Of a DNA stretch of 32,000 nt, positions 1-26,698 are shown piece after piece. Position numbers and translations under genes: made by a program. The DNA comes from Alkanindiges sp. WGS2144 (GTDB lineage Bacteria > Pseudomonadota > Gammaproteobacteria > Pseudomonadales > Moraxellaceae): NCBI RefSeq assembly GCF_043950625.1, contig NZ_CP171007.1. One strand, given 5' to 3'. The number at the start of each line of letters is the position of its first letter. Position 1 is the stretch's first letter. The notes beneath the pieces were generated by a model. That model saw only the letters and a program-made list of their open reading frames with translations. It ran no database searches and had not been told where the DNA came from.

Positions 1-1966
1 TATTGATGGTTTTGTCAACTTAATGGCACGTAAAGGCAGCCTCAGCGACCAGCAGCTTATTTATATTCAAACCATTCAAAAATCATCAGCACATCTACTG
101 GCGCTGGTTAATGACGTGCTGGATTTTTCCAAGATTGATGCCGGCAAACTGGTACTCGAGCAGGCACCTTTTGATCTGGAACAAGCCGTATTTGATGTCA
201 TCGACATGCTCTCCCCGCTCGCCTGTGAAAAGCGCATTGATATGGCGGTGTATTACTACGAAGACATGCCCAGACAGGTCAATGGTGATGCACTACGCTT
301 TAAGCAGATTTTGACCAACCTGGTGAGTAATGCGATTAAATTTACCCCGGATGGCGACATTATTGTACGGGCACGCCTGGAAGACAGTAGTGATCAGCAT
401 TATTTAATTCATGTATCGGTACAGGATAGCGGCATCGGTCTAACAGGTGCTGACCGCAAGCTGCTGTTTGAGTCTTTTTCCCAGGGTGACCCATCCGTAA
501 CCCGCCAATACGGTGGCACGGGGCTGGGGCTGGCCATTTCGCGCCAGCTGGTGCATTTAATGCAGGGTAAAATTGGCTTTGAGGATAATCAGGAGCGCCA
601 TCCTACGGACAAGGGCGCCACATTCTGGTTTACCGTGCAGCTGGGTAAAGTCATGGATGAGCAAGACCTGACGGACTGGCCAGACTTAAGTGGCTGGCAG
701 GTTCTTTCCAGTATTCAGCATCCAGCCAGCGCCAATGTGCTGCGGGGCTATTTAAGCCAGGTTCAGGTTAAACAGCAGGAAGCCCAGTCCCTGCCAGACC
801 TGTTTGGTCGCCTGAGCAATTTTGAAAAGGAGCGCCATACGCATAGCTGGGTCATTGTAGACAATGGCGGAGATACCGAAGCATTGCTGCGCGAAATCCG
901 TACTCGCTATCACGGCGCACTGGCGGTGTATGGCTACCAGATGGCACTGGATCCCGATAGCCTGAAACGCTACGATGCCGTGGCTCTATATGAACCCATG
1001 AGCCGCTCTGCCCTGATTGCCATGTTACAGCATGAACAGGTGTATCACAGCCCGCAACCGGAGTTTTCCGGGCATGGGCTGCATGTACTGGCAGTGGATG
1101 ACCACCGGCCTAACCTGATGGTGCTGGAAGCATTGCTCAATGATTTGGGAGTTGAAGTCACCAGCGCCAATAGTGGTCTGGAAGCCCTTGAACTGATTAA
1201 TATACGACACGAAACCCAGCAGCCTGCTTTTGATCTGGTGTTTATGGATATTCAAATGCCACGGATGTCCGGCATTGAAGCCACCCAGGCCATTCGCCTG
1301 CTGGAAAAAGAATGGGGCAGTCATCATCAGTCATTACCTATTGTGGCCTTGAGTGCCCATGTGTTAAGCGATGAAAAGGACAACTTGCTGGCTGCTGGCA
1401 TGAACGATTATGTCAGCAAACCCATTCAGATCAATCAGTTGATCAGGATCTTGAACCAGTGGTCCAGCCTGCCAGCTCCCGTTGAACCATCGGCTGAAGC
1501 ACCTCAACAAAGCGCCAGTACCTTTTATCCGGATGACTTTTCACCAGAAGAGTTTTATCAACCTGCCCGGGAAAACATGCAGTATGACACCCAGCCACAT
1601 ATTCTGGACTGGCCAGAAAGCCTGAGGTTATCAGCCGGTAAAGCCGAACTGGCGCAGGAGTTGCTACAGATGCTGGTTTTCAGTTTTAATGACGAAAAAC
1701 AGCATTTAAAACAGCTCATTGCACAACAGGACTATCAGGAGCTTGAGCAGCGAATTCATCGGATGTATGGCGCCACCCGTTATATTGGATTGCCCAGCCT
1801 GCAAACCATCTCCCGCGCTTTTGAAAAAATGCTTATGGAGCAGCGCAAGTCTGGCCAGCCAGCCGGTAGCAATTTTATGGAAGATATTGATATGTACTAT
1901 CAACAGCTGATTGTCGCCATGAATGAACTGGAAACCGAAGCACAAAAGGTACTTAAATCACGTTAA
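1..1966 (+). CDS. Hybrid sensor histidine kinase / response regulator with C-terminal HPt domain (BarA/GacS type), 5'-truncated by the window edge
   Basis: The frame is open from base 2 (IDGFVNL precedes the first Met), so the N-terminus lies outside the window. HisKA-like helix SAHLLALVNDVLDFSKIDAGKL. HATPase N-box LTNLVSNAIKFT, G1 DSGIGL, G2 GGTGLGLAIS. Receiver domain VLAVDDHRPN...FMDIQMPRMSG...SKP. HPt-like HRMYGATRYIG. Confidence 0.9.
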   Translation, partial: IDGFVNLMARKGSLSDQQLIYIQTIQKSSAHLLALVNDVLDFSKIDAGKLVLEQAPFDLEQAVFDVIDMLSPLACEKRIDMAVYYYEDMPRQVNGDALRFKQILTNLVSNAIKFTPDGDIIVRARLEDSSDQHYLIHVSVQDSGIGLTGADRKLLFESFSQGDPSVTRQYGGTGLGLAISRQLVHLMQGKIGFEDNQERHPTDKGATFWFTVQLGKVMDEQDLTDWPDLSGWQVLSSIQHPASANVLRGYLSQVQVKQQEAQSLPDLFGRLSNFEKERHTHSWVIVDNGGDTEALLREIRTRYHGALAVYGYQMALDPDSLKRYDAVALYEPMSRSALIAMLQHEQVYHSPQPEFSGHGLHVLAVDDHRPNLMVLEALLNDLGVEVTSANSGLEALELINIRHETQQPAFDLVFMDIQMPRMSGIEATQAIRLLEKEWGSHHQSLPIVALSAHVLSDEKDNLLAAGMNDYVSKPIQINQLIRILNQWSSLPAPVEPSAEAPQQSASTFYPDDFSPEEFYQPARENMQYDTQPHILDWPESLRLSAGKAELAQELLQMLVFSFNDEKQHLKQLIAQQDYQELEQRIHRMYGATRYIGLPSLQTISRAFEKMLMEQRKSGQPAGSNFMEDIDMYYQQLIVAMNELETEAQKVLKSR

Positions 1967-2834: not shown

Positions 2835-2874
2835 TTAATCCAAACGATGTGTTTCCTACCCTCTGCCTATTTAT

Positions 2875-2906
2875 CAGGCCAGCTTTTCTGCTTGGCCTGT
2901 TTTTTT
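2875..2906 (+). terminator. Rho-independent terminator after the crotonase gene; marks the left edge of the AT-rich island
   Basis: caggccagc / gcttggcctg stem with one bulged base and a short loop, followed by a T7 run (2900-2906), about 40 nt after the stop codon. Confidence 0.7.
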
Positions 2907-2943
2907 ACCTGAAACGTTATTCTTTATATTCGCTTTACAAGGA

Positions 2944-2957
2944 GACACCACCTGTCA
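2944..2957 (+). promoter_or_regulatory. Copy 1 of the repeated imperfect palindrome GACA-NN-ACCTGTCA (putative operator)
   Basis: gacaccacctgtca, 50 nt upstream of the ATG at 3008. A TATACT -10-like hexamer lies at 2980-2985. Confidence 0.45.
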
Positions 2958-3007
2958 GCACTGCCTATTACCCTGTGGCTATACTTAGTAATAGACCAGG
3001 AAAAAAC

Positions 3008-3199
3008 ATGATTTGGGTAGCTTTAAATATTATTTTTGCCTTTTTAATTGCCAATTATGCTGAGCATAAAGGACAGTCTTTTATATTTTGGTGTTTACTC
3101 TCCCTAATATTTACTCCAGTAGTTGGATTAATCACCTTATTGGGAATATTGTTTGTTAAAAAGAATTTTGGAAGAAATAGAAAAAATATTAACTATTGA
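3008..3199 (+). CDS. Small membrane protein (63 aa, two predicted TM helices), hypothetical
   Basis: MIWVALNIIFAFLIANY...FIFWCLLSLIFTPVVGLITLLGILF has two hydrophobic stretches. An AGGA lies 7 nt upstream of the ATG at 3008. The longer GTG-initiated ORF from 2849 runs through the terminator hairpin and was trimmed. Confidence 0.4.
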   Translation: MIWVALNIIFAFLIANYAEHKGQSFIFWCLLSLIFTPVVGLITLLGILFVKKNFGRNRKNINY

Positions 3200-3228
3200 A
3201 ATAAAAGGTAATTAACCTCCTAGCCAGT

Positions 3229-3242
3229 GACACGACCTGTCA
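3229..3242 (+). promoter_or_regulatory. Copy 2 of the repeated palindrome (putative operator)
   Basis: gacacgacctgtca; with its flanking bases this reads as a perfect TGACA-N5-TGTCA inverted repeat. It lies 67 nt upstream of the ATG at 3310. Confidence 0.45.
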
Positions 3243-3309
3243 TCTATACAATTCACAATAACACTATTAACTAACGTCATTAAAGTAATGACTTTTTTGG
3301 AGTAAAACA

Positions 3310-3909
3310 ATGAAGGGAACCATTCTGGATTTTTCAATCCAAACCAATACAGGGATTATTTCTGGGGAAGATGGAAAGCGCTATCAATTTACAGGAAGCG
3401 AATGGAAAGAACAGCAGACGCCTCAACGCGGTATACAAGTTGATTTTGATAGCAATGAACAAGGTCAGGCTTATGGAATTTATTCTGCCTTATCCTCAAG
3501 CTCATCTCATTCTGCTTCGACCTTTCATAACCAGTCGGTAAAAACTGAAGAACAGTATCAATTTATTGACTGGTTTATTAAAGGATTAAAGAATTACGCT
3601 AATTTTGACGGGCGTGCCAGCCGCAAGGAATTCTGGTTTTTTATGCTGGGTAAATATCTAGTTTTACTGGCTTTGGCTATCATGGATGCCGTTCTTGGCA
3701 CAGAAGGAATACTACTGATATTGGGTATGGTCGGACTTGCGATACCCGAGTGGGCAGCAGGTTGTCGGCGCCTGCACGATATTGGCAAAAGTGGCTGGCT
3801 CCAATTACTGTCCATTATACCTCTTGGCATTATTATACTAATGATATGGTGGGCTAAAGAAGACGATACACATAGCAATCAGTATGGAGAGCCAACTAGA
3901 TCTCTATAA
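3310..3909 (+). CDS. DUF805 (YhaH/YhaI-like) inner-membrane protein with an extra N-terminal soluble domain
   Basis: DGRASRKEFWFFMLGKYLVLLAL followed by further TM segments and HDIGKSGW fits the DUF805 pattern as I recall it. A TGGAG Shine-Dalgarno precedes the ATG. Confidence 0.7.
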   Translation: MKGTILDFSIQTNTGIISGEDGKRYQFTGSEWKEQQTPQRGIQVDFDSNEQGQAYGIYSALSSSSSHSASTFHNQSVKTEEQYQFIDWFIKGLKNYANFDGRASRKEFWFFMLGKYLVLLALAIMDAVLGTEGILLILGMVGLAIPEWAAGCRRLHDIGKSGWLQLLSIIPLGIIILMIWWAKEDDTHSNQYGEPTRSL

Positions 3910-3917
3910 GCATTTCT

Positions 3918-3951
3918 AGCATCTACAGCAACTCGTTGTAGATGCTTATTT
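3918..3951 (+). terminator. Rho-independent terminator after the DUF805 gene
   Basis: Perfect 10-bp stem agcatctaca (3918-3927) / tgtagatgct (3937-3946) with a 9-nt loop, followed by tattt. Confidence 0.6.
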
Positions 3952-3966
3952 AAACAGGATATTTAC

Positions 3967-4569
3967 ATGAAACCTCAACCTATTGCCCTTAGTATCACCC
4001 TACTATTTACCACACTCACGTTAAACGCCTGCAATAAAGTAGGTACGGAAGCCAAAGAGAATATCCCTGAAACTCTTCAAGCGCAAAATAGCCAGCCAAG
4101 AAATGATAAAATATCACCAGTAAAATCGGTCAACACTATTGAAAATCTAATAGACGGTAAGATTAAGGATTCCATAAGTTTCTTAAATGAAGAATCCCGA
4201 CGCGCTAGCCCAGATGATGATTATTTTAAATATACTTTAAACTCAAAAAATATTATCAAATCTGACTTAAATCATGATGGGAAGCCAGACTATATTGTGG
4301 AAGCCAGTTTCTGTGAAGAAACAAGTTGCCACTCAACCACGATGACTTCTGAGTTTTATGTATTTATTATAAGTCAAAATGATCAACCACAATTTATTAC
4401 AAGCATTAATTTTGACCTGAATGCGAAAATAATAGATATCACTAAAGATGGAATTATTACAATTGAAAATCATGAATATGCGGATGATGACCCATCTTGC
4501 TGTCCCTCTATCATTAACAAACAAACTTACGCTTTAGTAGGCAAAAAATTAGCTGTATTGGCAGACTAA
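3967..4569 (+). CDS. Lipoprotein, hypothetical
   Basis: Signal peptide with lipobox LTLNAC. CAGGA Shine-Dalgarno. No recognisable catalytic motif. Confidence 0.7.
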   Translation: MKPQPIALSITLLFTTLTLNACNKVGTEAKENIPETLQAQNSQPRNDKISPVKSVNTIENLIDGKIKDSISFLNEESRRASPDDDYFKYTLNSKNIIKSDLNHDGKPDYIVEASFCEETSCHSTTMTSEFYVFIISQNDQPQFITSINFDLNAKIIDITKDGIITIENHEYADDDPSCCPSIINKQTYALVGKKLAVLAD

Positions 4570-4576
4570 TCTTTCA

Positions 4577-4620
4577 ATGGGAAATACACATGGTGCAGCC
4601 AAGTGATATTTCCCATTTTT
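4577..4620 (+). terminator. Hairpin terminator between convergent genes
   Basis: Perfect 10-bp stem atgggaaata (4577-4586) / tatttcccat (4607-4616) followed by tttt. It sits between the stops at 4569 (+) and 4622 (-). Confidence 0.6.
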
Positions 4621-4621
4621 A

Positions 4622-5197
4622 TTATTGAGTAAATGTCCAGTTACCCAAATTAGTATTAATTTGAACTTCGATAATTTTATCTAACGCACAATTATTGATA
4701 TAGCCCGTATAGGTACGGCCAAAAACCAAGTTCACTGGCATTGGTCTTGAGTTATCAATGGCACTACACTGGCCGCGGTTCAGGATCACTTTTTCAATAG
4801 TGACCCGATCTGTAATAGCCTGAATTTCTATCATGCCTAAACCATACTCTGCCCAGACAGGATTAAGTTTTAACTCAAAACGCACTGGAGATTTTTCTGA
4901 AGCTGGCAAGGTTTCTTCGAAAATATTTTCCTCAGAAAGATTAAAATCATCTTGATCAAATCGGGCTAAACCTTCTGCACTATATGGTTCATCAGATTCA
5001 ACATTGATAGAATCTTTTTGCTGGATGACATCTGTTTTTACAACTGAGCTCTCCTCCTGCTCATTTTTTGATATGTCTTGACAGCCACCAACCAGCAAAA
5101 GACTTGCTAAAAAATATGCCACTCTTATCTTATAGCTATATGCACTGCCTGTATAAATAGCCTGCTTAATAGTGAAATTTTTCATCATTTTATCCAT
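4622..5197 (-). CDS. Lipoprotein, hypothetical
   Basis: Lipobox LLLVGGC after a hydrophobic h-region. Several in-frame Met starts (MDKMMK) leave the exact start uncertain. It lies 15 nt downstream of the 5213-5752 gene and is probably co-transcribed with it. Confidence 0.65.
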   Translation of the reverse strand: MDKMMKNFTIKQAIYTGSAYSYKIRVAYFLASLLLVGGCQDISKNEQEESSVVKTDVIQQKDSINVESDEPYSAEGLARFDQDDFNLSEENIFEETLPASEKSPVRFELKLNPVWAEYGLGMIEIQAITDRVTIEKVILNRGQCSAIDNSRPMPVNLVFGRTYTGYINNCALDKIIEVQINTNLGNWTFTQ

Positions 5198-5212
5198 CTG
5201 CTCTAATTATAG

Positions 5213-5752
5213 TTATGAATATGAGTGGCAATATTGCTGCTCACCAAATGGCTCATCATAGCCCAAACTCATTACAGATACTTTTTGGCTTTTTAGCTGT
5301 TGCGTGGTTAGTTCGCCACCCCATACATTGAAAATTACATTGATGGAACCTTCAGGGCCACTTCTGACCACATAATCTGCAATCATGCCCTCACCCCAGC
5401 CTTCATGATAACAGCCGTATTTCAGCTTTTTCTCAATGGTATGAATGCTTTCCTGATTAAGAAAAATTTTTATGCCGTGAGTATATAAATAATCTGTAGT
5501 AGCTTTACCACTAAGTGTTGCATTACTTAATCCATACTGGTCAAAACTTGCTGCAACACTATTGCCGTTTTTTAATTGCCATATTATTAAGCCAGCGTTT
5601 TTTTCTGTGGGTTTTCCCAACTTTTTTATGACAGTTGATAAAGCGTCTCCTACAGTCAGTTTGACCCCGTTGGTAGAGATAAAATCCTCTGCAAGGACAG
5701 AAGTTGTGCCAGCAAGCAAACCCACTAATAAAACAGATTTTGTTAACTTCAC
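5213..5752 (-). CDS. Secreted protein, hypothetical
   Basis: Sec-type signal peptide MKLTKSVLLVGLLAGTTSVLA/EDF. No recognised domain. Confidence 0.65.
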   Translation of the reverse strand: MKLTKSVLLVGLLAGTTSVLAEDFISTNGVKLTVGDALSTVIKKLGKPTEKNAGLIIWQLKNGNSVAASFDQYGLSNATLSGKATTDYLYTHGIKIFLNQESIHTIEKKLKYGCYHEGWGEGMIADYVVRSGPEGSINVIFNVWGGELTTQQLKSQKVSVMSLGYDEPFGEQQYCHSYS

Positions 5753-5812
5753 CTTAAAGCCCCTTTATTTAAATATCATTTATTGATGAGGCTTTATTAT
5801 TGAATATAGCGT

Positions 5813-5826
5813 GGACAGGTGATGTC
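5813..5826 (-). promoter_or_regulatory. Copy 3 of the repeated palindrome (putative operator)
   Basis: The plus strand reads ggacaggtgatgtc and the minus strand GACATCACCTGTCC. It lies 60 nt upstream of the minus-strand start at 5752 and 32 nt past the HEPN gene stop. Confidence 0.45.
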
Positions 5827-5858
5827 TATGCCAGTGTAAAATATACCTCCCTATGTAA

Positions 5859-6521
5859 TCAATCATTTTTAATTACGGGGTAAAAAGGTTTACCCCATGT
5901 TATATCATCTGGATTTTGCAGCATTACTCTTAGCATCTCAGGAATAAGTGTAGACAAGATATGACAGGCATCTTTGAGTTGACTACGGTTTACTGTACTA
6001 TTAAATGTTGCTCCCCCATGAATAATTTGATTGCGCAAGGTATATAGATGATTAAAAACAGCTATTAAAATTTCAGGTGTATCTTTTTGAACTAAAGCAT
6101 TCAACGCTTTTTTCTGATTTTTTTCAAAACTTTCTAACCATATCTGCTCTGCGATTAAACCATTGTGGTAATCCCAAAATGGCTGAAAGGTAAATTGATT
6201 ATTCAGTAAAATACGGATACTGCCTGAAAATGTATGCCATACAGAGTGATAGATTTTCTGTTCTTTATCTAAATGACAGATACGATGGATAAACTGTACA
6301 AATAGACCTTTATCCGCACTACGTAAACCTGCCCCTAAATCTTTGGCGTATACTGCATTAAAGGCTATCCATAAAGCGATAAACTGTGTATCTATATCAT
6401 GTCCCTGTTGTGCTTGTTCGGCACATTGCAGCCAGCTTAATGAGCGATGCATTCGTAGACGAAAATCTTCATTAAATTGTTCACGATTTTTTTTAAAGGT
6501 GTTTTGAATAGTTGATAGCAC
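5859..6521 (-). CDS. HEPN-superfamily protein (predicted RNase-type effector)
   Basis: Rx4H motif in ...LYTLRNQIIHGGATF... (about 6015-6041) near the C-terminal third of a predicted all-helical 220-aa protein. It is the last gene of the cluster. Confidence 0.6.
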   Translation of the reverse strand: MLSTIQNTFKKNREQFNEDFRLRMHRSLSWLQCAEQAQQGHDIDTQFIALWIAFNAVYAKDLGAGLRSADKGLFVQFIHRICHLDKEQKIYHSVWHTFSGSIRILLNNQFTFQPFWDYHNGLIAEQIWLESFEKNQKKALNALVQKDTPEILIAVFNHLYTLRNQIIHGGATFNSTVNRSQLKDACHILSTLIPEMLRVMLQNPDDITWGKPFYPVIKND

Positions 6522-6567
6522 ATTCTTACCTTAATGATTTAAATAGATTATGTTTACTCTAAGAATC

Positions 6568-6600
6568 AGAAATGCCACACTTCACAAGTATGGCATTTCT
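6568..6600 (-). other. Intergenic stem-loop between the Hsp70-like and HEPN genes (possible attenuator or processing site)
   Basis: Perfect 10-bp stem agaaatgcca (6568-6577) / tggcatttct (6591-6600) with a 13-nt loop. There is no good U-tract on the minus strand, so it is not a canonical terminator. Confidence 0.4.
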
Positions 6601-6605
6601 ATTCC

Positions 6606-9419
6606 TTAACTTAAGTCAATTACCCGACTATTAGTTACCTGTTGCCGAGCCACTGCTTCGAGATCCAATGCTGTACAGATTTCAATCTCATTAGGTGAGA
6701 TAACCTTGGCAAAGACCCTATGCCCTTGTATATTGCCTGACAAACGTATGTTGTGTTCAAACAACCCTGTCTCACCACGCTTTACACTTTTCTCTATGGC
6801 TGCTTGTGGTGCAGTGGTATAGCCCATTACCAGCACCCCATTTAATGGCTTACCAAGCTCTATCCATTGCTCATAGTTTTGACCACGAGCTAAAGCCACC
6901 TGGAAAATATCGCGCTTAAAAGCACCAACAAAATACTGAAATGGGCTATCAGTATTATGCTGTGCAGCATGGTTAATCACTTTCAACCGTTCACCATGTC
7001 CTAAACGCAGCAACCCTAATGCAACACCTGTTTTTGCGGTAGGGGCATAGGGGTTTTTTGGGTCGGCATCTAAAGGTAAATGGATTTCGAAAATAGGAAT
7101 TTCATTATCATCCAGGAAAATTTCTGCCCTGTCTGCTAACGAGAAGTCATGCAGTGCTTTAGATTTATCCTCTTCCAAGCATCCAAGTAAGCCCAATACG
7201 ATACTTGAACGACTTGAATTTCCTGCTAACAGAATATGCACTAATTCTGGTAGTTGCTGGGTTTGCTGTCTAAAAGCACCTTTTAAAGCGATAAAAAAGT
7301 TTTTCAAGCCCTGACGAATGCGATTTTCCAGGAAAGTAATTAATTCTTTCTGATTAATGTTGATTTCACAATCTACGGTTTTACCGTCTTTACTCATTAG
7401 TTTAAAGGTTTCTGTACCTTTGGAATCCAGGTCAATTTTTCCTGCCTCCCACAATGGACGAAGTTTTGACATCATCAATGTGGTATTGGTATAGGCAGCC
7501 TGTGTTTGTTCTATCAATAACTCTGAACCAGCAAAACTATCGGCATCAAGCGGTTTGGTAAAGGCTACATTTTTTTTACGACATTCACTGGCATTGGCTT
7601 GAAATACCAAATATGCCAGATTTTCTAGTAGATTTTCACCGCCCAAAAATTTATCGCCCGATGAGCCAAAATGCTCAATCACATGATCCCAGCCCTCATC
7701 TTCTTCTTCATCGGTAGGCAAACGATAAAAGCCATAATCAAAGTCTGTGGTACCACCACCAAAGTCAAATACAGCATAGGATACACCGCCATCATCAGGT
7801 TCAATTTCCAGCCGTTCCAGTGCGGCTGCGGCAAATGCGGCAGGTTCGGACGCTAGTTCTTCAACACTAAACTCATTTATCCGTGCATCATAAAGCAGGG
7901 CTTCTGGCAAGCTACGCTGTAAACCCCTACGGAATGCTGCCAAAATTTTGTTTTTAATATCATTTGGATATTCAACTGGAAAGGTCAAATAGTAATTGAG
8001 GAAAATCCCTCTTGCACGCCAGTTAATATTCATGCCCAGAAACCACGCATAAATCTCAATTGGGTCAAGCTCTGGGTAGTCTTTGCCCAGTTCTATCACC
8101 TTGCCCTTGACTGGGTTATATTCAGTCAAGGGTTTTAGCTGGTATTCATATTCCTGTTGGTCACGGATACGAACCTCTTGTTGTTCACCACGCAATGCCC
8201 ATTGTTTCAGGCGCAATAAAATACTACTCACCACGCTGCTATTGGTATCATTTTTACGCAGGTTGGCACGGGCTTCATGTGAACAGTGAATATTGTTCCA
8301 ATCAACCAGTGGACGGTATACTTCACTTTTCCATTCATTTAAAAATTCTTGTAAATCGATAAATTCCAGTACAGTTGGGTTTTCATATTGCTGGTCGGTA
8401 ATTTCATCCTGTGCAAAATGTTTTTCCTGCATTCCAATACGCAATAACTCGTCTTTACCATTGGCACGAATGGCAACTACGGTGCTACTGGTACCAAAAT
8501 CAATAGCCACGCTGGCTTCCCGAATATCTAAAGCAGGATTACGGTCACGGAAAAACTGGCTAGTCTGAACTTTGGTAAATTTATCCTGTAAGGCTTTGGG
8601 GGCATAGAATTCCCACATGCCTTGCTTAACATCGATAAAACACAAAGTGTCAATTTTGGGTAGGCGCGTAGTAGTGTAGTCGATACTTTGCCAGATCTCG
8701 GCAATACTTAACTCAGGCTTATAGTTATATACTTTCTCAGGCAGCTCAGTAATAGTTTTTGCGTTTTTATAAAGTGCATTAAAAGCTGCTGGATCATTGA
8801 TATTATATGGTTTATAACTCCACTTTCTTTTGGTAAAGGTTCTTAATGCTTCTACCGTACTGGGCTTCTGATTAAATAAGGAATTTAAAGCAATAATAAG
8901 TGCTTCTACCTGGCGAGGTGCCTTATCAGATAAGAAACCTGAAATACGAATATTAGCCACTGTGCTCGATATATGAGGATCATTGTAATCTAAATCTACT
9001 GCACCTGTATTAACTAACCAAGCATTGGCTCCTAATAGCCTGTAATTGCTTCCTGCATGAAGTGGAAAACGACTATCTTTAGCTATCCCCATTAATTGTG
9101 GTTTGGTCGGTAGTTTCCAGCCACTTAATCCACCTAAATTTAAGTGATTAGTTACTTCTTTAGCGGCACTGACGGAATAATAATTACTAATATCAGGCTT
9201 ACCTTGCCATAATAACCCTGTTTCTCTATCAAAAATCATTTCACCGTCATTCACCCACCAGTAGCGGTATTGTTCAAAATACGCTACGGCTGCGTCAGTT
9301 GCCTGTTTTAGGGTTTTGGGATCTTCTATCTTGTCATTTTGCAGTGCCATGGCTTCGGCAGTCGCAAGTAGCTTTTGATGTTTTAAGGTTGGTACAGATG
9401 TGTCAAAGGTTTGGCTCAT
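6606..9419 (-). CDS. Hsp70-like (actin-fold) ATPase with DUF1566/Lcl-C-like N-terminal domain, non-canonical
   Basis: Hsp70 phosphate-1 motif AIDFGTSSTVVA (about 8481-8510), phosphate-2 AVFDFGGGTTDFD (about 7740-7775), adenosine motif HILLAGNSSRSSIV (about 7203-7238). N-terminal DRETGLLWQG...GGLSGWKLPTKPQL resembles DUF1566. I chose the ATG at 9419 (MSQTFD) because AAGGA lies 8 nt upstream. The ORF-track start is 9473. Confidence 0.8.
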   Translation of the reverse strand: MSQTFDTSVPTLKHQKLLATAEAMALQNDKIEDPKTLKQATDAAVAYFEQYRYWWVNDGEMIFDRETGLLWQGKPDISNYYSVSAAKEVTNHLNLGGLSGWKLPTKPQLMGIAKDSRFPLHAGSNYRLLGANAWLVNTGAVDLDYNDPHISSTVANIRISGFLSDKAPRQVEALIIALNSLFNQKPSTVEALRTFTKRKWSYKPYNINDPAAFNALYKNAKTITELPEKVYNYKPELSIAEIWQSIDYTTTRLPKIDTLCFIDVKQGMWEFYAPKALQDKFTKVQTSQFFRDRNPALDIREASVAIDFGTSSTVVAIRANGKDELLRIGMQEKHFAQDEITDQQYENPTVLEFIDLQEFLNEWKSEVYRPLVDWNNIHCSHEARANLRKNDTNSSVVSSILLRLKQWALRGEQQEVRIRDQQEYEYQLKPLTEYNPVKGKVIELGKDYPELDPIEIYAWFLGMNINWRARGIFLNYYLTFPVEYPNDIKNKILAAFRRGLQRSLPEALLYDARINEFSVEELASEPAAFAAAALERLEIEPDDGGVSYAVFDFGGGTTDFDYGFYRLPTDEEEDEGWDHVIEHFGSSGDKFLGGENLLENLAYLVFQANASECRKKNVAFTKPLDADSFAGSELLIEQTQAAYTNTTLMMSKLRPLWEAGKIDLDSKGTETFKLMSKDGKTVDCEININQKELITFLENRIRQGLKNFFIALKGAFRQQTQQLPELVHILLAGNSSRSSIVLGLLGCLEEDKSKALHDFSLADRAEIFLDDNEIPIFEIHLPLDADPKNPYAPTAKTGVALGLLRLGHGERLKVINHAAQHNTDSPFQYFVGAFKRDIFQVALARGQNYEQWIELGKPLNGVLVMGYTTAPQAAIEKSVKRGETGLFEHNIRLSGNIQGHRVFAKVISPNEIEICTALDLEAVARQQVTNSRVIDLS

Positions 9420-9675
9420 GGGTTTTTCCTTAATGAAGAGCGTATAATTCAATTTATATTGGGTGTATTGCACACGCCCTTACTTGAACTCACTAGATAA
9501 TAAATTTTGCAGAAAGTGCCGCTCGTAACCTTGTTTGCTGTATGGCATTTTTTATATCTCCCAGCAATGAGCAATAGGTGACTGTTTCTATTTCATTACC
9601 CACAAGAGATTCTCAACATTCTGTTCATCGAATAGGCACCTAAAACTTAAATACCACTTTAAAACCATGTAAGAA

Positions 9676-10566
9676 TTATCGGGTCACGACAACCGCAGCA
9701 CGTACATTATCACACGCAGCATTACATAGACCTGCCAGCAACACCTGCTCTATATTGCCACCGCTGCCTGATACTTTTTGATGAATGTCATAGTCATAAT
9801 TTTCACCAATTTCAGGATCTTGCAGAGTTGCCTGGTTACTTTGCAAGGTAAGATTAAACAAAGCCAAACTATGCTCAAGGATAGTTCTTTCCGTTACAGA
9901 TATTGCTTGTTGGGTATTTTTGACCTGGGCGGCTAAAGCATCCCATATCCGTAAAACATTATTCCACTGAGATGCAATAGCTATCAGCTGCAAGATGTTT
10001 TCATCATGGTTAGGCAGTAGAATTTTACTTATTTCAGGATGTGCCTGAACTTGCTGTAAAAAGTCAAATTCGGGTTTTAGTGAACTTGCCCAATTAAATG
10101 AATCTAGTACTTTGTTTAAAGCATTTATTTTGCTGCCCATGCTCTCATTGTTTTGCATGAGCTGCTCATTTTCCTGATTTAATCGACTAATCTGTAGCTG
10201 TAACTGGCTCAGATCCTGTTCTTTACGTTTAAATAAACCCAGAAGTCCCATTTTTTCCTCTTCAAGTTGTTTATTGCTTTGTGTAAGCTGTGCTAATTGC
10301 TGACTTAAGCCATCATTATCCTGCTGTAGCACATAAATAAGCTGCTCAAGCTCTTTAAGCTTTGGATCTGAAAATGAATCCTTTTTTGCTTTTGCATCAC
10401 TTTGAAGTGGTAAAGCTTCATTCTGGTTTGATGTTCGATCAACCATATTGCGCAAAAATCGGCCCAACCTTTCTTGAAACACGTGATCGTCATTGGTTAA
10501 TTGCTCTATATGTGACAAGAATTGAGTGAGTACTTTTTTGCTTGGCATGCTGTCATTGTTTTCCAT
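9676..10566 (-). CDS. Coiled-coil protein with GrpE-like C-terminal domain (putative dedicated nucleotide-exchange factor)
   Basis: A long Q/L/E-rich heptad region precedes the C-terminus ...EIGENYDYDIHQKVSGSGGNIEQVLLAGLCNAACDNVRAAVVVTR. This parallels the GrpE beta-domain pattern G..FDP..H.A....g.V..v..GY......R.A.V.V. The assignment rests on motif resemblance only. Confidence 0.5.
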   Translation of the reverse strand: MENNDSMPSKKVLTQFLSHIEQLTNDDHVFQERLGRFLRNMVDRTSNQNEALPLQSDAKAKKDSFSDPKLKELEQLIYVLQQDNDGLSQQLAQLTQSNKQLEEEKMGLLGLFKRKEQDLSQLQLQISRLNQENEQLMQNNESMGSKINALNKVLDSFNWASSLKPEFDFLQQVQAHPEISKILLPNHDENILQLIAIASQWNNVLRIWDALAAQVKNTQQAISVTERTILEHSLALFNLTLQSNQATLQDPEIGENYDYDIHQKVSGSGGNIEQVLLAGLCNAACDNVRAAVVVTR

Positions 10567-10569
10567 GAG

Positions 10570-11502
10570 TTAGTCCAGGTCACCAATTAACACCTTAAAT
10601 TCCTGATGCACCTGTAACCCACTATGGTTGTGTACCAGCTCACGACATAAATCTAAAATCTTGTCCTGACTTGCTGCTGATAAAGCTACAAATTGACGTT
10701 TCTTTTGCTGTACCGTACTTAAATTTGGCGAATGATACGGTGATGGAACATGCGGTGCATTTAACACTCCAACAATTAGAGCCAGCTCATCAGGACGTAC
10801 CACATTCCAGAAGTCCTTAAAAATCACAGGTAAAAAGACCAGTAAACTTTCCAAGTCAGGCTGTTGCAGCTTTTGCAGCTGAGCTTTTGCCTCTGCAATA
10901 TGCTGTTGTAACTGCTGTTTGTCATGTTCCAGTTTATTTACTTGTTGAGCCAAGGCTTGCTCTGCATCCGAACGCATTAATGCAAGCTGCTCTTCAATCT
11001 GATTTTTTTCCTGACGTAAAGCGGCTAAAGCTTGCTGTTGATGCTCAATACTGTTTTCATGCCAGACCAATGGCAAAATATGATCTTGTACCCATGGGTG
11101 ATCGACCGTCTGAGTATCAAAAAATACCTGTTCGATATTTAATATTTGTAAAGCATATTGATAAATACTATCCCAATTGAGTATTTGCCATGTCTTACAG
11201 TGATATTCCTGTAAGTTTTTCACAGCATCAATAAATAGTTTATCTTGCCCCTGTTGGTAAAGCAGACTCACTTTTACTTTTTCTAAGCCATCTTTTAAAT
11301 TCAAGTTAGCAGAAATATCGCTTAATACATCTTTTAAGCTACTCGTCTTATCCTTGTGTAGATATTGCTGACTTCCTTTAATTTGAATTAGCTGCCAAGG
11401 TTCTGATTGCATACTTTGGTATGCGACCAGATGTTCTTTAAATGCTAAAATACATAGATAATGTTGTAAGTCATCGTTAGGGGCTGTTTTTTGTTTACTC
11501 AT
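10570..11502 (-). CDS. Hypothetical protein: N-terminal globular region plus Q-rich coiled coil
   Basis: Coiled-coil stretch QQQALAALRQEKNQIEEQLALMRSDAEQALAQQVNKLEHDKQQLQQHIAEAKAQLQKLQQ. The ATG at 11502 overlaps the upstream stop as ATGAGTAA, which suggests translational coupling. An alternative start is 11532. Confidence 0.6.
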   Translation of the reverse strand: MSKQKTAPNDDLQHYLCILAFKEHLVAYQSMQSEPWQLIQIKGSQQYLHKDKTSSLKDVLSDISANLNLKDGLEKVKVSLLYQQGQDKLFIDAVKNLQEYHCKTWQILNWDSIYQYALQILNIEQVFFDTQTVDHPWVQDHILPLVWHENSIEHQQQALAALRQEKNQIEEQLALMRSDAEQALAQQVNKLEHDKQQLQQHIAEAKAQLQKLQQPDLESLLVFLPVIFKDFWNVVRPDELALIVGVLNAPHVPSPYHSPNLSTVQQKKRQFVALSAASQDKILDLCRELVHNHSGLQVHQEFKVLIGDLD

Positions 11503-12196
11503 GGGTATAGTCCCTAAATTGAGTATTGTCATTCAATTCTTTTAAAATATTTGCAGTCGATTTATCTGGATTGATACTTTTTTCTGCTTCAATCAATTTA
11601 TCTTCCACGGCATTACGTTCATTTGATGAAAGTTTTCCATCAAAAAATTGAACAACATCAGAGATATTTTCAACTTTATCAAGGAAACTTGCTAAACGAT
11701 CTCCTGTAAAATAATCTGGTGATTCAACAGTTTTGGATAATAAGTCTCCTGTGCCTACCCCAAATTTTTCTTCAAAGCCCCAATACTGTACGCCAATACC
11801 TGCCGCCATTTTATCAAGGTCACTTGTTTCAGCAGATTTTTTAGGATCTAATTCAAAACTTTTAATCGCAGCCAGATATTCTTTATAGGTTGCATAGTTC
11901 TCAGGACTAATTCCATGATCTCGTGCCTGTATCGCACGATCACCAACTTCCTCTGTGGTTTCATTCGGTTCTAACATCCCTAAAATCTTGCTAATCACAT
12001 CTATCGCTGTGATCGCTTTTGCTAATGCCCCAGAAATAGGCAAAGCAAGTGCCAAAGCAGTAATAAATGAGCCTGAAGAACCACTTAATACATTGGAAAT
12101 CCCACTTAATACACTGGAACATGCACTGCTAACCGCAGAACAGACACTACTAAATGTGGAACTTACCGCAGAACAGGCATCACTGAACCAACCCAT
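11495..12196 (-). CDS. Ser/Cys-rich, hydrophobic-segment small protein (233 aa), long paralog; candidate membrane-active component
   Basis: N-terminus MGWFSDACSAVSSTFSSVCSAVSSACSSVLSGISNVLSGSS, then the hydrophobic stretch FITALALALPISGALAKAITAIDVISKILGML, then a soluble C-terminal domain. AGGAG lies 8 nt upstream of the ATG. It shares SPENYATYKEYLAAIKSFELDPK with the upstream 84-aa ORF. Confidence 0.65.
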   Translation of the reverse strand: MGWFSDACSAVSSTFSSVCSAVSSACSSVLSGISNVLSGSSGSFITALALALPISGALAKAITAIDVISKILGMLEPNETTEEVGDRAIQARDHGISPENYATYKEYLAAIKSFELDPKKSAETSDLDKMAAGIGVQYWGFEEKFGVGTGDLLSKTVESPDYFTGDRLASFLDKVENISDVVQFFDGKLSSNERNAVEDKLIEAEKSINPDKSTANILKELNDNTQFRDYTHE

Positions 12197-12208
12197 TTTA
12201 TTTCTCCT
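12158..12208 (-). repeat. Direct repeat copy A (5' end plus RBS of the 233-aa gene)
   Basis: ggaacttaccgcagaacaggcatcactgaaccaacccattttatttctcct is identical at 49 of 51 positions to 12414-12464, offset 256 nt. Confidence 0.85.
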
Positions 12209-12452
12209 GAAAATGTTTTTTTACGTCATCGAGACTTTCAATTTCATCCAATTCATCTGGAATTTGACTAAGTTGAGCACTACTTTTTTTAGAACTGACC
12301 GATTGTTTAACTAACTTCGGATCAAGCTCAAAATTACGAATATCCGCAGCATGTTTTTTATATGAGGCATTGTCTTCAGGCGTTTCCGATTTACTTGAAG
12401 ATGAATCCCATGCGGAACTTACCGCAGAAAAGGCATTACTGAACCAACCCAT
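12198..12452 (-). CDS. Small protein (84 aa), short paralog of the 233-aa protein that lacks the hydrophobic segment
   Basis: MGWFSNAFSAVSS... and TPEDNASYKKHAADIRNFELDPK align with the neighbour. It has the same AGGAGAAATAAAATG ribosome-binding/start context. Confidence 0.55.
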   Translation of the reverse strand: MGWFSNAFSAVSSAWDSSSSKSETPEDNASYKKHAADIRNFELDPKLVKQSVSSKKSSAQLSQIPDELDEIESLDDVKKHFQEK

Positions 12453-12464
12453 TTTATTTCTCCT
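12414..12464 (-). repeat. Direct repeat copy B (5' end plus RBS of the 84-aa gene)
   Basis: ggaacttaccgcagaaaaggcattactgaaccaacccattttatttctcct; see copy A. Confidence 0.85.
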
Positions 12465-15400
12465 TAAATTGATTGAATACCTTTACACATCTCGGCTATA
12501 TCTAGCCAAACATTTCCATTAGCCTTAATATTTTCTTCACCTAAAACCTGCTTGAGGGTATTTTCTGTATCTAAAGGTTCTAATAAATTTAACTGCACCA
12601 AATCCCACAATATTGCAAATAATTGCACTGCTTTTAATTTTACTGTTTTGGCGTTAAGTGTATAAATACGTTCAGGTGAGATCGGTGCAATATCTTCAAA
12701 CAATATCAATATTGTTGGTTTAACAGGCACAAATGTGTATTTTTCTGCCAATGCTTGCATTGCTTCAAAAGTACGAGCTTTCCAATCTAAATCCTCGGCT
12801 TTCATACTCATACGAATCAATAAATTTAACATTCTAGTCGCATCTACTAGATATTGATTAAAAACTTCTGCCCCAATCTCACTCCAATCATAGTGCTTGG
12901 ATAGCCTTGGATAGAGTCTTGCTCGTTGGGCAAACATGCGTTGTTGCCCAAGCTGCTTAATGATATCAACATCTATTTCAGGTGCATTGGTATCATTTGG
13001 TGTATGTACTTGTACCCTGACTGCTTCATGCCAACCTGCACTATAAACAATCGCTTCACCTGCGGTCAGCAAGGTTAAAAACTCTTTTTGTTCATCATCT
13101 AAACCAATCGTATCGCCAATCGCATGACGGTCATCAGCAGCAAATAGTCGATGAATAATTTTGGTATTGGTATTTTTTAAAACTTCTGGTGTCAATTTAT
13201 TCGGAATTTGATCAGCAATAATCAGACCTTCACCATATTTACGAACTTCTGCCAAAAGGTTAGCGAATAGTTCTACGCCCAAACGCTTAGAACTATCTTC
13301 CCCACCTTGTGGTTTAGATAACAAACGGTGTGCTTCTTCCAATAAAGTGAGATGTTGAAAACTATGGTCTTTTTTATGACGTTGTTTAACTGCTTCAGCC
13401 ACACGCCCAATCAGCAACCCCATCATTAAACATTTATCTTGTTCATCTCGTAAATCCTCCAACTCAATCACAACTTTTTTATCAAGCATCTCATTGATGT
13501 CAATTGAATTGCGAGTATTCAGCATCCGACCTTTTGCACCTGTGGTCAGATTATCTAAGCGAGAAATTAATGAACCTTCATATTTTTGCTGTAAATCAGT
13601 TCCAAAATTTTTAGATTTAATTACCTCTTTTAAGGTCAATAATACTTCGGAAAAAATAGGAAAACTTTGTCCACCACAATTCCAAGGATCAGGATAAATA
13701 TAGTTTTCATCATAATGAATATCCCAGCCTTTCTGCTCATAACTACGAACAATTGCATCTTCAATTAAATATGGCATTGAAGCTTCCATTGGAAATACTG
13801 CGGCAAATGTTGCTTTAAGCATGTCAATATGACCCGATAAAGGCTCATTCGGTAATAATTCAAATGGATTAAAACGAAATGGTGAAACTTTTTCATTACC
13901 CAAAGTATAATATTCAATTTCAGGATGATGCTTCGATAAGCTACGATATTCAGTTTTAGCAGGCTCAATAACCAAAAAAGGTAAACCTGAGTTAATCAAA
14001 ATCTGTTGGCAAGTGGTGGTTTTACCTGCTCCTGTAACCCCTGAAATAAAAATATGCTGATTGAGTAATTTTTTATCTAAACGCACCACATTATCTTTGA
14101 GCTTACGTCCATGCTGCACCACAACACCCAAATCAAAACCATCTTTTGGATTTACTGGATTTACTGCAAAATCAACATTTTTGCGTAATTTAATGCCTGC
14201 TACTTCACGACTTGGTAAACCTGCCAATAAGGAAAGCTCATTAGCATTAAGCCATGTTGCTGCGGAAAATGCCTGTTTAGCCTGTGGAATACTGTGAATC
14301 AATGCCAGTTGATTACTCATATTTGACTGTGGCAAACGCTGTACTAAAAATAGATTATGAACTTGTTTTTTTTGTAAAGAAAAATCCGTTACTTTAAGTG
14401 GCGAAAAATGCGATTGATTGCCCTGAAAAACGGATACCATCGCACGAGATAAACGATTATAAACGACAGGTGTTGGTGCAGCCAAATAGACTGCGGTACG
14501 GAACATACCTTTACTACGCCCTAAATCAAAACGCTCAATCAATTTGTCATTGATATGGCTTTGTACACGTTCAATCTTTTTATTCACGTATTCAAGGGTA
14601 TCTGACTTAGAAGAACCTGTATTTGTCCCTTGGGTTGTAGAGGTATTATCTGAATCAGTTTTAGAAATGGATTTACCTGTATTTTTTCCTACAGTTTGAG
14701 ATTCATTGGTACTTGTTCCATCTGCAATCGTCTTAGATGAATTTTTCCCCCAGTTGGTTGTATCACTACTACTAGAATAACTACTATTTTCCCCTTTAGT
14801 TCTGCTGCCTCCAGCATTATCTCCCTTTGAATGACTAACAGTTCTACTATCTCCAGTACCGTCAGTTTTAGAGATACTCGTCCCTGTATTCTTAGTTAAA
14901 CCGTAGCTACTACTTCTTCCTATAGTATTTGAAGTCGTAGTACTATCATTTTCACCCAACTGCTGTGAGCGTTTAATGTGTGGATGTAAATCTGATGACA
15001 GCTGCAATAGCTCATCAATCTGCTGATTAATTTCAAACTCCTGAGCAGGCTCAGCCACTAATAAAAGCTGCCAGATCTCACCTGATAAACCACGAGCAAG
15101 ACGATCTATTCCCTGTGTAATGTTGTGCCCAGTCTGTGATTGCTGGTCGATACTGCGAGAGGGTACGCCATGCAGCAACCCAAAATGTATCGACTCTTGT
15201 AATGGTTGAATGATTTTTACAGATAAATCTTCCCTGCTAACTTTTTCTAGTTGCACACCAGTCAAATTTCCTTCTAATTGACTGGTTAGAAGTTCACTAT
15301 ACTCATGTACACCCGATTTTTGAACCTTATTTACCACTCCTAGATAAAGCTCAATCCCTTCCGATGTGCCCGAAATATAGTATACCCAACAATAGTCAGG

Positions 15401-25030: not shown

Positions 25031-25048
25031 TCACGCTGTGGTTTAACT

Positions 25049-25083
25049 GGTCTTTAGGCAAATAAATGTTGAGCCTAAAGACC
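25049..25083 (+). terminator. Hairpin terminator after the acyl-CoA dehydrogenase gene
   Basis: Perfect 11-bp stem ggtctttaggc (25049-25059) / gcctaaagacc (25073-25083). The T-run (tattttt) starts 9 nt later, so this is not textbook geometry. Confidence 0.5.
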
Positions 25084-25317
25084 CAGGTTATATTTTTCAG
25101 CAAGATCAACTGTGTTTGCCAGATGTTACCAACCCCTTTTAGTTCTTATTTTTGTTTTATTGAGTGCTTAAAAATAAATGATTACTAGAGAATAACTTCC
25201 TGCCCTAGCTTTCAAATAATGCTACTAAATATGAACGAATTTTAGCCTATTTATTAGTCTTCTCTACATGATATTGCCCTAAACTAAATATCAGTGCACT
25301 AATGGATTAATACTTGC

Positions 25318-26673: not shown

Positions 26674-26698
26674 CAGATATTTTATAGACTATCTGGTT

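Follow-up and report, generated by a model that had tools for sequence, protein, structure and literature searches.

A predicted Hsp70-superfamily ATPase is the signature of a mobile, probably defensive gene cassette in Alkanindiges sp. WGS2144 and other bacteria

On its minus strand, a 32,000-nucleotide stretch of the Alkanindiges sp. WGS2144 genome (here called the window; contig NZ_CP171007.1) carries a gene for a 937-amino-acid (aa) protein whose middle is an Hsp70-type nucleotide-binding domain (NBD). Our data show that this Hsp70-like gene belongs to a cassette of conserved order that recurs in many bacteria, in which an NBD with an invariant active site is combined with variable terminal domains, two coiled-coil proteins, and a large nucleoside triphosphatase (NTPase). 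We infer that the cassette is a self-contained, horizontally mobile accessory unit and probably an anti-phage or anti-mobile-element system. The explanation taken as a whole, in which a lidless cytoplasmic Hsp70-superfamily ATPase, the signature of this mobile cassette, would cycle ATP on a specific client with defense as the output, seems to us evenly poised between right and wrong. The Hsp70-like gene and the parts of its product are as follows.

6606 to 9419, minus strand: Hsp70-like ATPase gene, the cassette's signature gene; 937 aa plus a stop codon
8715 to 9419, minus strand: N-terminal module, aa 1 to 235; a long helix at aa 11 to 48 in the AlphaFold2 model, then a partial Lcl_C/DUF1566-like domain
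9066 to 9239, minus strand: best-matching Lcl_C-like core, aa 61 to 118, from the Pfam Lcl_C match
8523 to 8714, minus strand: conserved segment ahead of the NBD, aa 236 to 299 (IDY..TRLPKID...QGMWEFY...R.RNP.LDIR), with invariant alignment columns
6996 to 8522, minus strand: Hsp70-type NBD, aa 300 to 808, from hhalign against the Escherichia coli DnaK NBD and from Foldseek (E = 1e-16)
8481 to 8507, minus strand: phosphate-1 motif AIDFGTSST, aa 305 to 313, aligned to DnaK IDLGTTNS; D307 and G309 invariant in 132/132 relatives
8205 to 8207, minus strand: K405, in hhalign register with the catalytic K70 of DnaK (RLKQWALR versus AIKRLIGRR); invariant in 132/132
7845 to 7847, minus strand: E525, aligned to the catalytic E171 of DnaK (SEPAAF versus NEPTAA); invariant in 132/132
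7737 to 7769, minus strand: phosphate-2 motif FDFGGGTTDFD, aa 551 to 561; D552 and T557 align to DnaK D194 and T199
7206 to 7232, minus strand: adenosine-binding motif LLAGNSSRS, aa 730 to 738, aligned to DnaK ILVGGQTRM; G733 and N734 invariant
6609 to 6995, minus strand: interdomain linker GERLKVINH, aa 809 to 817, and C-terminal beta-domain, aa ~825 to 937; predicted to resemble the beta subdomain of an Hsp70 substrate-binding domain (SBD-beta), with no helical lid

Results

The Hsp70-type NBD and its active site

The initial annotation had recognized an Hsp70 ATPase from three motifs, and this identity was borne out by hhalign, with probabilities of up to 95.8%, by Foldseek, with E values of 1e-16, and by the conservation of all three motifs. 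The curated models are another matter. Pfam HSP70 gave no match to the protein at an E value of ≤0.1, and eight distant relatives had no Pfam match either; the NCBIfam DnaK and HscA models reached E values of only ~1e-3 over aa 527 to 635 (in the numbering of a 955-aa open reading frame [ORF]), with 12 to 18 bits against cut-offs of 620 to 822. Searches of Protein Data Bank (PDB) sequences with the single sequence and with the family profile returned, at best, the DnaK NBD at an E value of 0.08, an alignment that nonetheless falls on EP.A.A, D.GGGT.D, and GD..LGGE. Since the Pfam, NCBIfam, and PADLOC scans were uninformative, homology was established by profile-profile and structure comparison, so that a profile check for HSP70 is negative with the curated Pfam model but positive when profiles are compared with DnaK. 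The family alignment matched E. coli DnaK, whose sequence had been verified against the PDB, with a probability of 93.5% (E = 2.4e-7), pairing aa 302 to 808 with DnaK residues 3 to 396, and an alignment of 132 sequences matched DnaK residues 2 to 362 with a probability of 95.8% (E = 7.6e-9). The AlphaFold2 model of the full-length protein had a predicted local distance difference test score (pLDDT) of 77 and a predicted template modeling (TM) score of 0.60. With this model as the query, the top 50 Foldseek matches were all Hsp70 or Hsp110 proteins, the best at an E value of 1.4e-16, and contained no kinases or actins, at a structure-based identity to DnaK/Hsp70 structures of ~13 to 16%.

Among 132 diverse relatives, D307, G309, K405, E525, D552, G554 to G556, D559, E595, G733, and N734 are invariant, and T557 is kept in 131. 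As the residues that align with the DnaK active site are thus invariant or nearly so, the protein is predicted to be a catalytically competent ATPase under strong purifying selection. By sequence register, K405 would be the equivalent of DnaK K70; it lies inside a conserved 55-residue insertion in the NBD (aa 396 to 450) that is modeled with low confidence. The family-wide conserved core begins near the segment that precedes the NBD, and distant relatives match the family profile from about position 215 to the C terminus.

The longest ORF over the gene spans positions 6606 to 9473 with a GTG start and encodes 955 aa, and its frame is intact. We took the ATG at 9419, which yields 937 aa, as the correct start because it is preceded, 9 to 13 nucleotides upstream, by an AAGGA ribosome-binding site and because homologs open with MSQ(T/S)F. 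The coordinates 6606 to 9419 given earlier were thereby upheld, and the motifs quoted with them (AIDFGTSST, FDFGGGTTDFD, LLAGNSSRS, DRETGLLWQG, and GWKLPTKPQL) are all present at verified positions. In database searches, the product was 100% identical to the hypothetical protein ACF3NA_09015 of Alkanindiges sp. WGS2144.

The C-terminal region

Behind the NBD, the initial annotation had seen a tail of about 150 residues with neither a DnaK substrate-binding domain (SBD) nor an EEVD motif. The tail is closer to 130 aa, and at the sequence level the description holds: in hhalign, the last ~130 aa scored 12.3 against the DnaK SBD, within the range of 30 shuffled controls (7 to 17), and an EEVD-like terminus was found nowhere in the family, the protein ending with its beta-domain at aa 937. 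It does not hold for the predicted structure, in which this region forms a beta-sandwich resembling the Hsp70 SBD-beta. The model of the C-terminal fragment had a mean pLDDT of 80.7, with block means of 83 to 96 over its residues 30 to 143, and contained nine strands of at least three residues. Ten of its 13 top Foldseek matches were Hsp70 SBDs, all of them weak (E values of 0.05 to 0.5 and TM scores of 0.35 to 0.46); among individual entries, 4jnf matched with a probability of 0.96 and 4ani_H with a TM score of 0.46.

The linker GERLKVINH is nearly invariant in close relatives and variable across the wider family, and AlphaFold2 models it as a beta-strand, as in ATP-bound DnaK. Foldseek alignments of the full model covered ~660 to 690 columns of constructs containing both NBD and SBD (E = 1e-16), compared with ~490 to 540 columns of NBD-only entries (E of ~1e-12). 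The model was closest to docked, ATP-type DnaK (root mean square deviation of 8.5 to 9.5 Å; TM scores of 0.32 to 0.34), and undocked ADP-bound or GrpE-bound states fitted worse (20 to 25 Å; 0.23 to 0.28). No helical domain corresponding to the lid (SBD-alpha) appeared in the full-length or C-terminal models. A check of the structure for an ordinary beta-sandwich and lid is therefore answered by halves, the sandwich being probably present and the lid absent. On the strength of these models, it is fairly likely that the protein is a lidless Hsp70 made up of NBD, linker, and SBD-beta rather than an NBD with an unrelated tail.

The N-terminal module

The proposed DUF1566/Lcl-C-like character of the N terminus reflects a real resemblance, shared by 14 of the 16 N termini examined among relatives (Lcl_C match at E < 0.01), but the match is partial and stays below the Pfam cut-off. 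The motifs DRETGLLWQG and GWKLPTKPQL span aa 64 to 109. Pfam Lcl_C (PF07603) scored 28.4 bits with the full protein and 31.8 bits with the N terminus alone, against a cut-off of 34.9 (E values of 2e-6 to 2e-7), and the match spans only positions 2 to 62 of the 117 in the profile. For comparison, a genuine Lcl_C protein, encoded as a stand-alone gene within related operons of the dynamin type described below, scores 61.5 bits; aligned to it by hhalign, the N-terminal alignment gave a probability of 51% (E = 1.5e-4). A PDB profile search with the same alignment returned nothing relevant.

No other part of the protein evolves as fast as this module, whose mean pairwise identity is 31%; the NBD averages 65% and the C-terminal domain 50%, and between tandem paralogs the three values, in the same order, are 26, 62, and 41%. 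Many distant relatives lack an Lcl_C-like N terminus or carry other, unannotated extensions. Given this divergence and replacement, the N terminus is an accessory module, for specificity or oligomerization, and does not define the family. The C-terminal domain of the Legionella collagen-like adhesin Lcl has a C-type lectin-like fold, binds sulfated glycans, and has been proposed to serve in glycan recognition and/or trimerization (PMC11162425). The window's module shares with it the N-terminal half and the D..TGLLW and W.LPT..EL motifs; whereas Lcl is secreted and trimeric and binds host glycosaminoglycans (PMC11162425), the domain studied here is cytoplasmic, fused to an ATPase, and below the family threshold.

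Size and distribution of the family

One search recovered 1,240 relatives at an E value of ≤1e-3, and an exhaustive search recovered 1,848 representative clusters at 50% identity, 648 of them at ≤1e-30; such numbers place the feature far beyond chance. A scan of one genome per species yielded at least 493 loci, the best 80 of which were kept and come mainly from Gamma- and Betaproteobacteria and Magnetococcales. Members are annotated as hypothetical nearly throughout, with some entries named "acetate and sugar kinases/Hsc70/actin family protein." The Hsp70-like gene had no match in phage collections and only three weak, partial matches in viral contigs, and the family had none in an E. coli collection; hence, the cassette is neither phage borne nor an E. 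coli system. A full-length copy was found on 1 of 72,556 plasmids.

At least eight loci carry tandem Hsp70-like paralogs. In Acinetobacter radioresistens (L001) and on the Acinetobacter piscicola plasmid (L084), a second, divergent paralog occupies the position that in the window is a 256-nucleotide noncoding gap (9420 to 9675) between the Hsp70-like gene and its upstream neighbor; a copy may have been lost from the window or gained in the other two. Separately, locus L088 encodes (10001 to 14188) a 1,395-aa family member with an unannotated N-terminal extension of 540 residues. It has a single upstream gene of 249 aa (9182 to 9931) and no NTPase, and an HsdM/HsdS type I restriction-modification pair lies ~6 kb away; this locus may represent a minimal two-gene form.

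The cassette and its genes

Synteny defines a cassette in the order HerA-like ATPase (~1,050 aa), p233, cc320, cc296, and one or two Hsp70-like genes. The five-gene order is kept in 26 to 28 loci of Gamma- and Betaproteobacteria and in a distant metagenomic member, and the trio of cc320, cc296, and Hsp70-like genes is kept in 37 to 40 loci. In the window, the cassette genes and those associated with them are as follows.

15881 to 16816, minus strand: first gene of the cluster, a transcription regulator with a WYL domain (HTH_11-WYL-WCX), identified with Pfam and PADLOC
12464 to 15766, minus strand: ATPase of the HerA/FtsK/VirB4 superfamily, 1100 aa, matching Pfam DUF87, PADLOC HerA/mad8, and NCBIfam CedD/HerA/VirB4/"serine-rich protein"
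12198 to 12452, minus strand: 84-aa truncated p233 paralog, sharing with p233 the N terminus MGWFS(D/N)A.SAVSS and an internal NFELDPK
11495 to 12196, minus strand: p233, 233 aa; an uncharged, hydrophobic N terminus rich in small residues (~aa 1 to 70), then a conserved, helical-looking domain
10570 to 11532, minus strand: cc320, coiled-coil protein, 320 aa; conserved C-terminal LL.FLPAIF..FW..V.P.DLALL.G....P.IPSPYPEPS
9676 to 10566, minus strand: cc296, coiled-coil protein, 296 aa; variable N terminus and coiled coil, then a conserved C-terminal domain of ~135 aa
5859 to 6521, minus strand: HEPN-domain protein, 220 aa, with the R-x4-H motif RNQIIH at aa 163 to 168 (nucleotides 6018 to 6035); an optional downstream gene

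The HerA-like ATPase has a Walker A motif, GVTGAGKTT, at nucleotides 14015 to 14041 and a low-complexity stretch rich in Ser, Thr, Gly, and Asn at aa ~265 to 395 (window positions 14580 to 14970, minus strand). All 28 of 28 orthologs contain such a stretch, also rich in Gln, 100 to 200 residues long and ~200 residues ahead of Walker A, with these residues making up 70 to 87% of the best 60-aa window; it is kept as a feature and not as a sequence. Its possible roles include those of a tether, a phase-separating region, or a client of the Hsp70-like protein. The p233 protein, which had no family match in Pfam, PADLOC, or NCBIfam, co-occurs with the HerA-like gene in 26 to 28 loci, and the cassettes of A. 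radioresistens and A. piscicola have a small ORF equivalent to its 84-aa paralog. The cc320 gene is found in 36 to 39 related loci, and its product matches the NCBIfam sll0565 family below the cut-off (E = 1.3e-7). In 37 to 40 related loci, cc296 lies directly upstream of the Hsp70-like gene. The HEPN protein has weak matches, below the cut-off, to Pfam RiboL-PSP-HEPN and LA2681-HEPN, and its RefSeq ortholog is named "HEPN domain-containing protein"; a HEPN gene occurs in 6 of 83 related loci. The WYL regulator, found in 5 of the 83, takes the same position in several of them.

The initial annotation also spoke of a GrpE-like protein. This assignment found no support: none of 33 cc296-family members has a Pfam GrpE match, the profile of their alignment has no PDB GrpE match, and hhalign against 1, 3, and 108 GrpE sequences gave probabilities of 0.3 to 0.5%. 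By eye, the end of cc296 resembles the GrpE beta-domain through a short colinear likeness of motifs (YDYDIHQKV...GNIEQVLLAGL...VRAAVVVT versus GrpE LDPNVHQAI...GNVLGIMQKGY...IRAAMVTV), and hhalign chooses the same register without significance; we rejected this likeness as evidence and keep it only as a lead. The conserved HPD of J-domains is absent from every family of cassette partners. With HPD absent and GrpE unsupported, a canonical DnaJ/GrpE cycle finds no support in the cassette, and cc296 and cc320 are best described as dedicated cofactors.

Variants with dynamin-like GTPases

In six loci (L006, L007, L012 to L014, and L027), two dynamin-like GTPases take the place of the HerA-like ATPase and p233, and in two others (L040 and L075) a single one does; their Dynamin_N matches have E values of 5e-13 to 4e-25. 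Other products of these dynamin-type loci are stand-alone Lcl_C proteins, an OST-HTH protein, small biotin/lipoyl-like proteins, and a family of 234 to 263 aa whose DDALDE motif recalls isoprenoid synthases; the single dynamin has ~825 aa. On plasmid pYH12207-1 (L084), which has a HerA-type cassette, a 196-aa ORF annotated as a dynamin family protein (15751 to 16341) directly follows the HEPN gene; it may be a remnant that links the two types.

Genomic setting

The G+C content is 0.35 to 0.42 across positions ~3000 to 17000 of the window and 0.47 to 0.53 in the flanks. The cassette thus lies in a low-G+C island between metabolic and housekeeping genes, which agrees with the accessory, AT-rich cluster described earlier and with the claim that the gene is not the housekeeping dnaK. 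A tRNA scan of the window found no tRNA gene marking an integration site. Bordering the A. piscicola plasmid copy are IS3 elements, an integrase, and HipA toxin-antitoxin modules, and the genes of this copy are annotated as hypothetical except for "ATP-binding," "WYL," and "HEPN." Across 40 loci, 142 neighboring ORFs matched 170 Pfam families, none of which recurs more than four times. Strong matches to defense genes in these flanks include type IIG restriction-modification, DRT, Septu PtuA, Gabija GajB, PD-T7-1, DISARM DrmMI, MzaA, and PDC candidates; MmeI-type genes were also seen at related loci.

Discussion

Our data mark a divergent Hsp70-type ATPase as the signature of a widespread accessory cassette. 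Hsp70-superfamily ATPases in conflict-type operons are already known; what is new here is the domain architecture and a widespread cassette with interchangeable NTPase engines, and a description of the HerA-like/p233/cc320/cc296/Hsp70-like cassette was not found in the literature searched. Hsp70s are well studied, yet this family, with its ~1,850 clusters in at least 493 species-level genomes, has been missed by Pfam. Its catalytic site is fully kept while the lid is lost and variable terminal domains are gained, in a five-gene cassette whose motor is of either the HerA or the dynamin type.

With the canonical chaperones DnaK, HscA, and HscC, the protein shares the NBD fold, the phosphate-1, phosphate-2, and adenosine motifs, and equivalents of K70, E171, D194, and T199. 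As modeled, it further shares with DnaK an interdomain linker and, probably, an SBD-beta sandwich, and the model resembles the docked, ATP-bound state. It differs from DnaK in ~300 extra N-terminal residues, the 55-residue NBD insertion, and the missing lid, and its gene is accessory and mobile rather than housekeeping, in an operon with no cognate J-protein or demonstrable GrpE.

The closest published analogs appear to be the CnuD/CnuCD units and the VirB4-like extension of Type III-A CoCoNuTs. Type III CoCoNuT operons, which are derived from McrBC, combine Hsp70-like NBD/SBD proteins (CnuD/CnuCD) with HEPN RNases and proteins that contain coiled coils (Bell et al., eLife 2024, PMC11090510), and the Type III-A extension adds a small helical protein and an EccE3-like/VirB4-like HerA ATPase that carries a variable insertion (PMC11090510). 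By published description, this extension resembles the window's set of HerA-like, p233, Hsp70-like, and HEPN proteins. CnuD has degenerate Walker-A-like nucleotide motifs and is predicted to hydrolyze ATP poorly (PMC11090510), whereas the catalytic set of the window's family is strictly invariant. Genes for an McrB-like GTPase, McrC/DUF2357, CSD, or vWA were not found in the window's island with Pfam, PADLOC, or NCBIfam, and an McrB-like NxD GTPase and McrC/DUF2357 were likewise absent from the related loci.

Cyanobacterial dynamin-like proteins have been linked to a DnaK-domain protein as a "chaperone group," in a remark on gene neighborhood that offers no mechanism (Jilly et al., Front Plant Sci 2018, PMC5827413). 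The same linkage is seen in the dynamin-type variants of the cassette, and cc320 matches the Synechocystis sll0565 family, although the window itself is of the HerA type and has no dynamin; by this analogy, the two observations are probably the same phenomenon seen from different sides. What the cassette shares with the SIR2-HerA and DUF4297-HerA systems is its place in an accessory island and a large ATPase of the HerA superfamily, the C-terminal half of which is matched by PADLOC HerA models (E values of 1e-12 to 1e-19). Compared with these anti-phage systems, the window's ATPase is twice as long, has an extra N-terminal domain and the polar low-complexity stretch, and scores 47 bits with the NCBIfam model "HerA_antiphage," whose cut-off is 800; no SIR2 or DUF4297 partner was found in the island.

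Considering these data, we propose a model in which the Hsp70-like protein would act through ATP-driven clamping and release of a specific client rather than of general unfolded protein. The variable N- and C-terminal domains would recognize this client, possibly a protein that derives from an invader or the partner ATPase's low-complexity stretch; the Ser/Thr/Gly/Asn-rich, prion-like stretch of the HerA partner is a candidate. The two coiled-coil proteins would serve as dedicated cofactors or adaptors. In this model, the cycle would govern whether a large oligomeric NTPase, of the HerA type here and of the dynamin type elsewhere, is assembled, activated, or disassembled, and in loci like the window's a HEPN RNase could be among the outputs, giving anti-phage or anti-mobile-element defense of the abortive-infection type. 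The sensor or client-specific remodeler suggested in the initial annotation may be right, being compatible with the genomic context. A more specific version, a stand-alone, Hsp70-centered immune or conflict system in which hypervariable termini sense an invader cue and the ATP cycle licenses or reverses the assembly of an interchangeable HerA/VirB4- or dynamin-type engine, is speculative, and taken as a whole we regard it as rather unlikely.

Defense against phages or mobile elements is favored by the mobile context, with its neighboring defense genes and the near absence of the gene from phage and viral collections, by the presence of WYL and HEPN genes, and by the tandem paralogs and hypervariable terminal domains. 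Several findings pull the other way. The core cassette has no recognizable nuclease or toxin effector, and the HEPN and WYL genes are limited to the 6 and 5 loci noted above. The copies in Magnetococcales are solitary, lying beside genes for SerRS, TopA, GcpE, or a hybrid histidine kinase, and many flanking genes in general are housekeeping. PADLOC has no models for the Hsp70-like protein, cc296/cc320, or p233. As for a chaperone cycle, the cassette has neither a J-domain signature nor a supported GrpE homolog, K405 sits in an insertion modeled with low confidence, and the SBD-beta assignment comes from predicted structure, with weak Foldseek E values and no sequence signal.

One alternative keeps the chaperone and drops immunity. 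The protein would then be a dedicated chaperone of a membrane-remodeling or envelope machine, assembling, recycling, or targeting dynamins or the HerA-like ATPase with membrane-associated p233 during membrane stress, repair, or vesiculation. The exchange of HerA and p233 for membrane-active dynamin-like GTPases suits this explanation, as do the cyanobacterial "chaperone group" (PMC5827413), the match of cc320 to the cyanobacterial sll0565 family, the hydrophobic, small-residue-rich N terminus of p233, the lack of a nuclease in the core, and the housekeeping neighborhoods in Magnetococcales. We nevertheless consider it rather unlikely, given the patchy distribution, a mobile context that includes a plasmid, insertion sequence elements, an AT-rich island, and variable flanks, the association with WYL and HEPN genes, and the known defense systems nearby; tandem duplication with hypervariable termini is, moreover, more typical of conflict systems. 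Bacterial dynamin-like proteins have also reportedly been implicated in phage defense (DynA, LeoABC/Eleos), which we count against a purely envelope-related role. A second alternative, which takes the initial annotation at its word, drops the peptide clamp: an isolated Hsp70 NBD, preceded by a lectin head and followed by a tail that is not an SBD, would be a ligand (glycan) sensor whose ATPase is switched through the DUF1566 head. It draws on the Lcl_C-like signal, on the binding of sulfated glycans by Lcl (PMC11162425), and on a C-terminal domain with no sequence similarity to the DnaK SBD and statistically weak Foldseek matches. Yet those matches are mostly Hsp70 SBDs, the alignments are ~130 to 150 columns longer and have better E values on NBD-plus-SBD templates, and the linker is conserved in close relatives and modeled as a strand, as in ATP-bound DnaK. 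The Lcl_C match is, besides, partial, the protein shows no signal peptide in its sequence and is cytoplasmic, and many family members have no such head, which therefore cannot be the defining functional element; we judge a glycan sensor distinctly unlikely.

The nature of the partner ATPase raises a further possibility, that of a transfer or secretion apparatus of a mobile element, in which DNA or protein would be moved by a HerA/VirB4/TraD-like ATPase, with the Hsp70-like protein serving to unfold substrates or hand them over. Besides HerA, the ATPase matches VirB4, TraD, TrwB, and CedD-type translocases, one copy lies on a mobilizable plasmid, and conjugation or secretion has been suggested as a possible role of a similar pair, an EccE3-like/VirB4-like ATPase and a small helical protein (PMC11090510). 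We find this improbable, as the cassette is otherwise devoid of components of type IV or type VII secretion and has no relaxase or pilin genes, the ATPase is replaceable by dynamin-like GTPases, and only the one plasmid among 72,556 has a full-length copy. Least credible, to the point of being nearly dismissed, is a protein of the same superfamily of acetate and sugar kinases, Hsc70, and actin (ASKHA) that is not an Hsp70 at all, for instance a sugar kinase or a filament-forming protein like actin or ParM, whose motifs would reflect only the shared fold. Pfam HSP70 is silent and some database names point in that direction, but all 50 of the top 50 Foldseek matches are Hsp70 or Hsp110, the profile alignment covers the whole DnaK NBD with the Hsp70-specific K70, E171, and GD.hLGGE.F, and the NBD is followed by a linker and an SBD-like domain.

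If the cassette serves in defense, bacterial immunity would gain a mechanism driven by a chaperone, and a tractable model would be at hand for the retargeting of Hsp70 to single clients. Should the control of assembly through the client stretch hold true, chaperone-controlled assembly would be a new logic of bacterial immunity. Even if it is not for defense, the cassette ties Hsp70-type ATPases to dynamins and HerA machines, a connection so far mentioned only in passing for cyanobacteria and CoCoNuTs.

Additional observations

The window also encodes a hybrid histidine kinase (HisKA-HATPase-REC-Hpt; 23 to 1966, plus strand), which ends 4.6 kb from the Hsp70-like gene. In five Magnetococcales loci (L065, L066, and L069 to L071), a hybrid kinase and a protein of 140 to 155 aa lie directly upstream of the solitary Hsp70-like gene. 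We set aside a link to the kinase: the corresponding BLAST cluster (F5) gathers sensor kinases in general, and the adjacency in Magnetococcales may be coincidence or shared ancestry.

The AT-rich stretch reaches beyond the cassette into positions 2849 to 5752, which contain a small hydrophobic ORF (2849 to 3199), a DUF805 membrane protein (3310 to 3909), and three lipoprotein-like ORFs with no family match (3967 to 4569, plus strand; 4622 to 5197 and 5213 to 5752, minus strand). The adjacency of these ORFs to the cassette is not kept in other genomes. A second, smaller dip in G+C content, to 0.42, at positions 25001 to 26700 coincides with a 451-aa ORF (25318 to 26673) that has only a marginal Polyketide_cyc2/START-like match.

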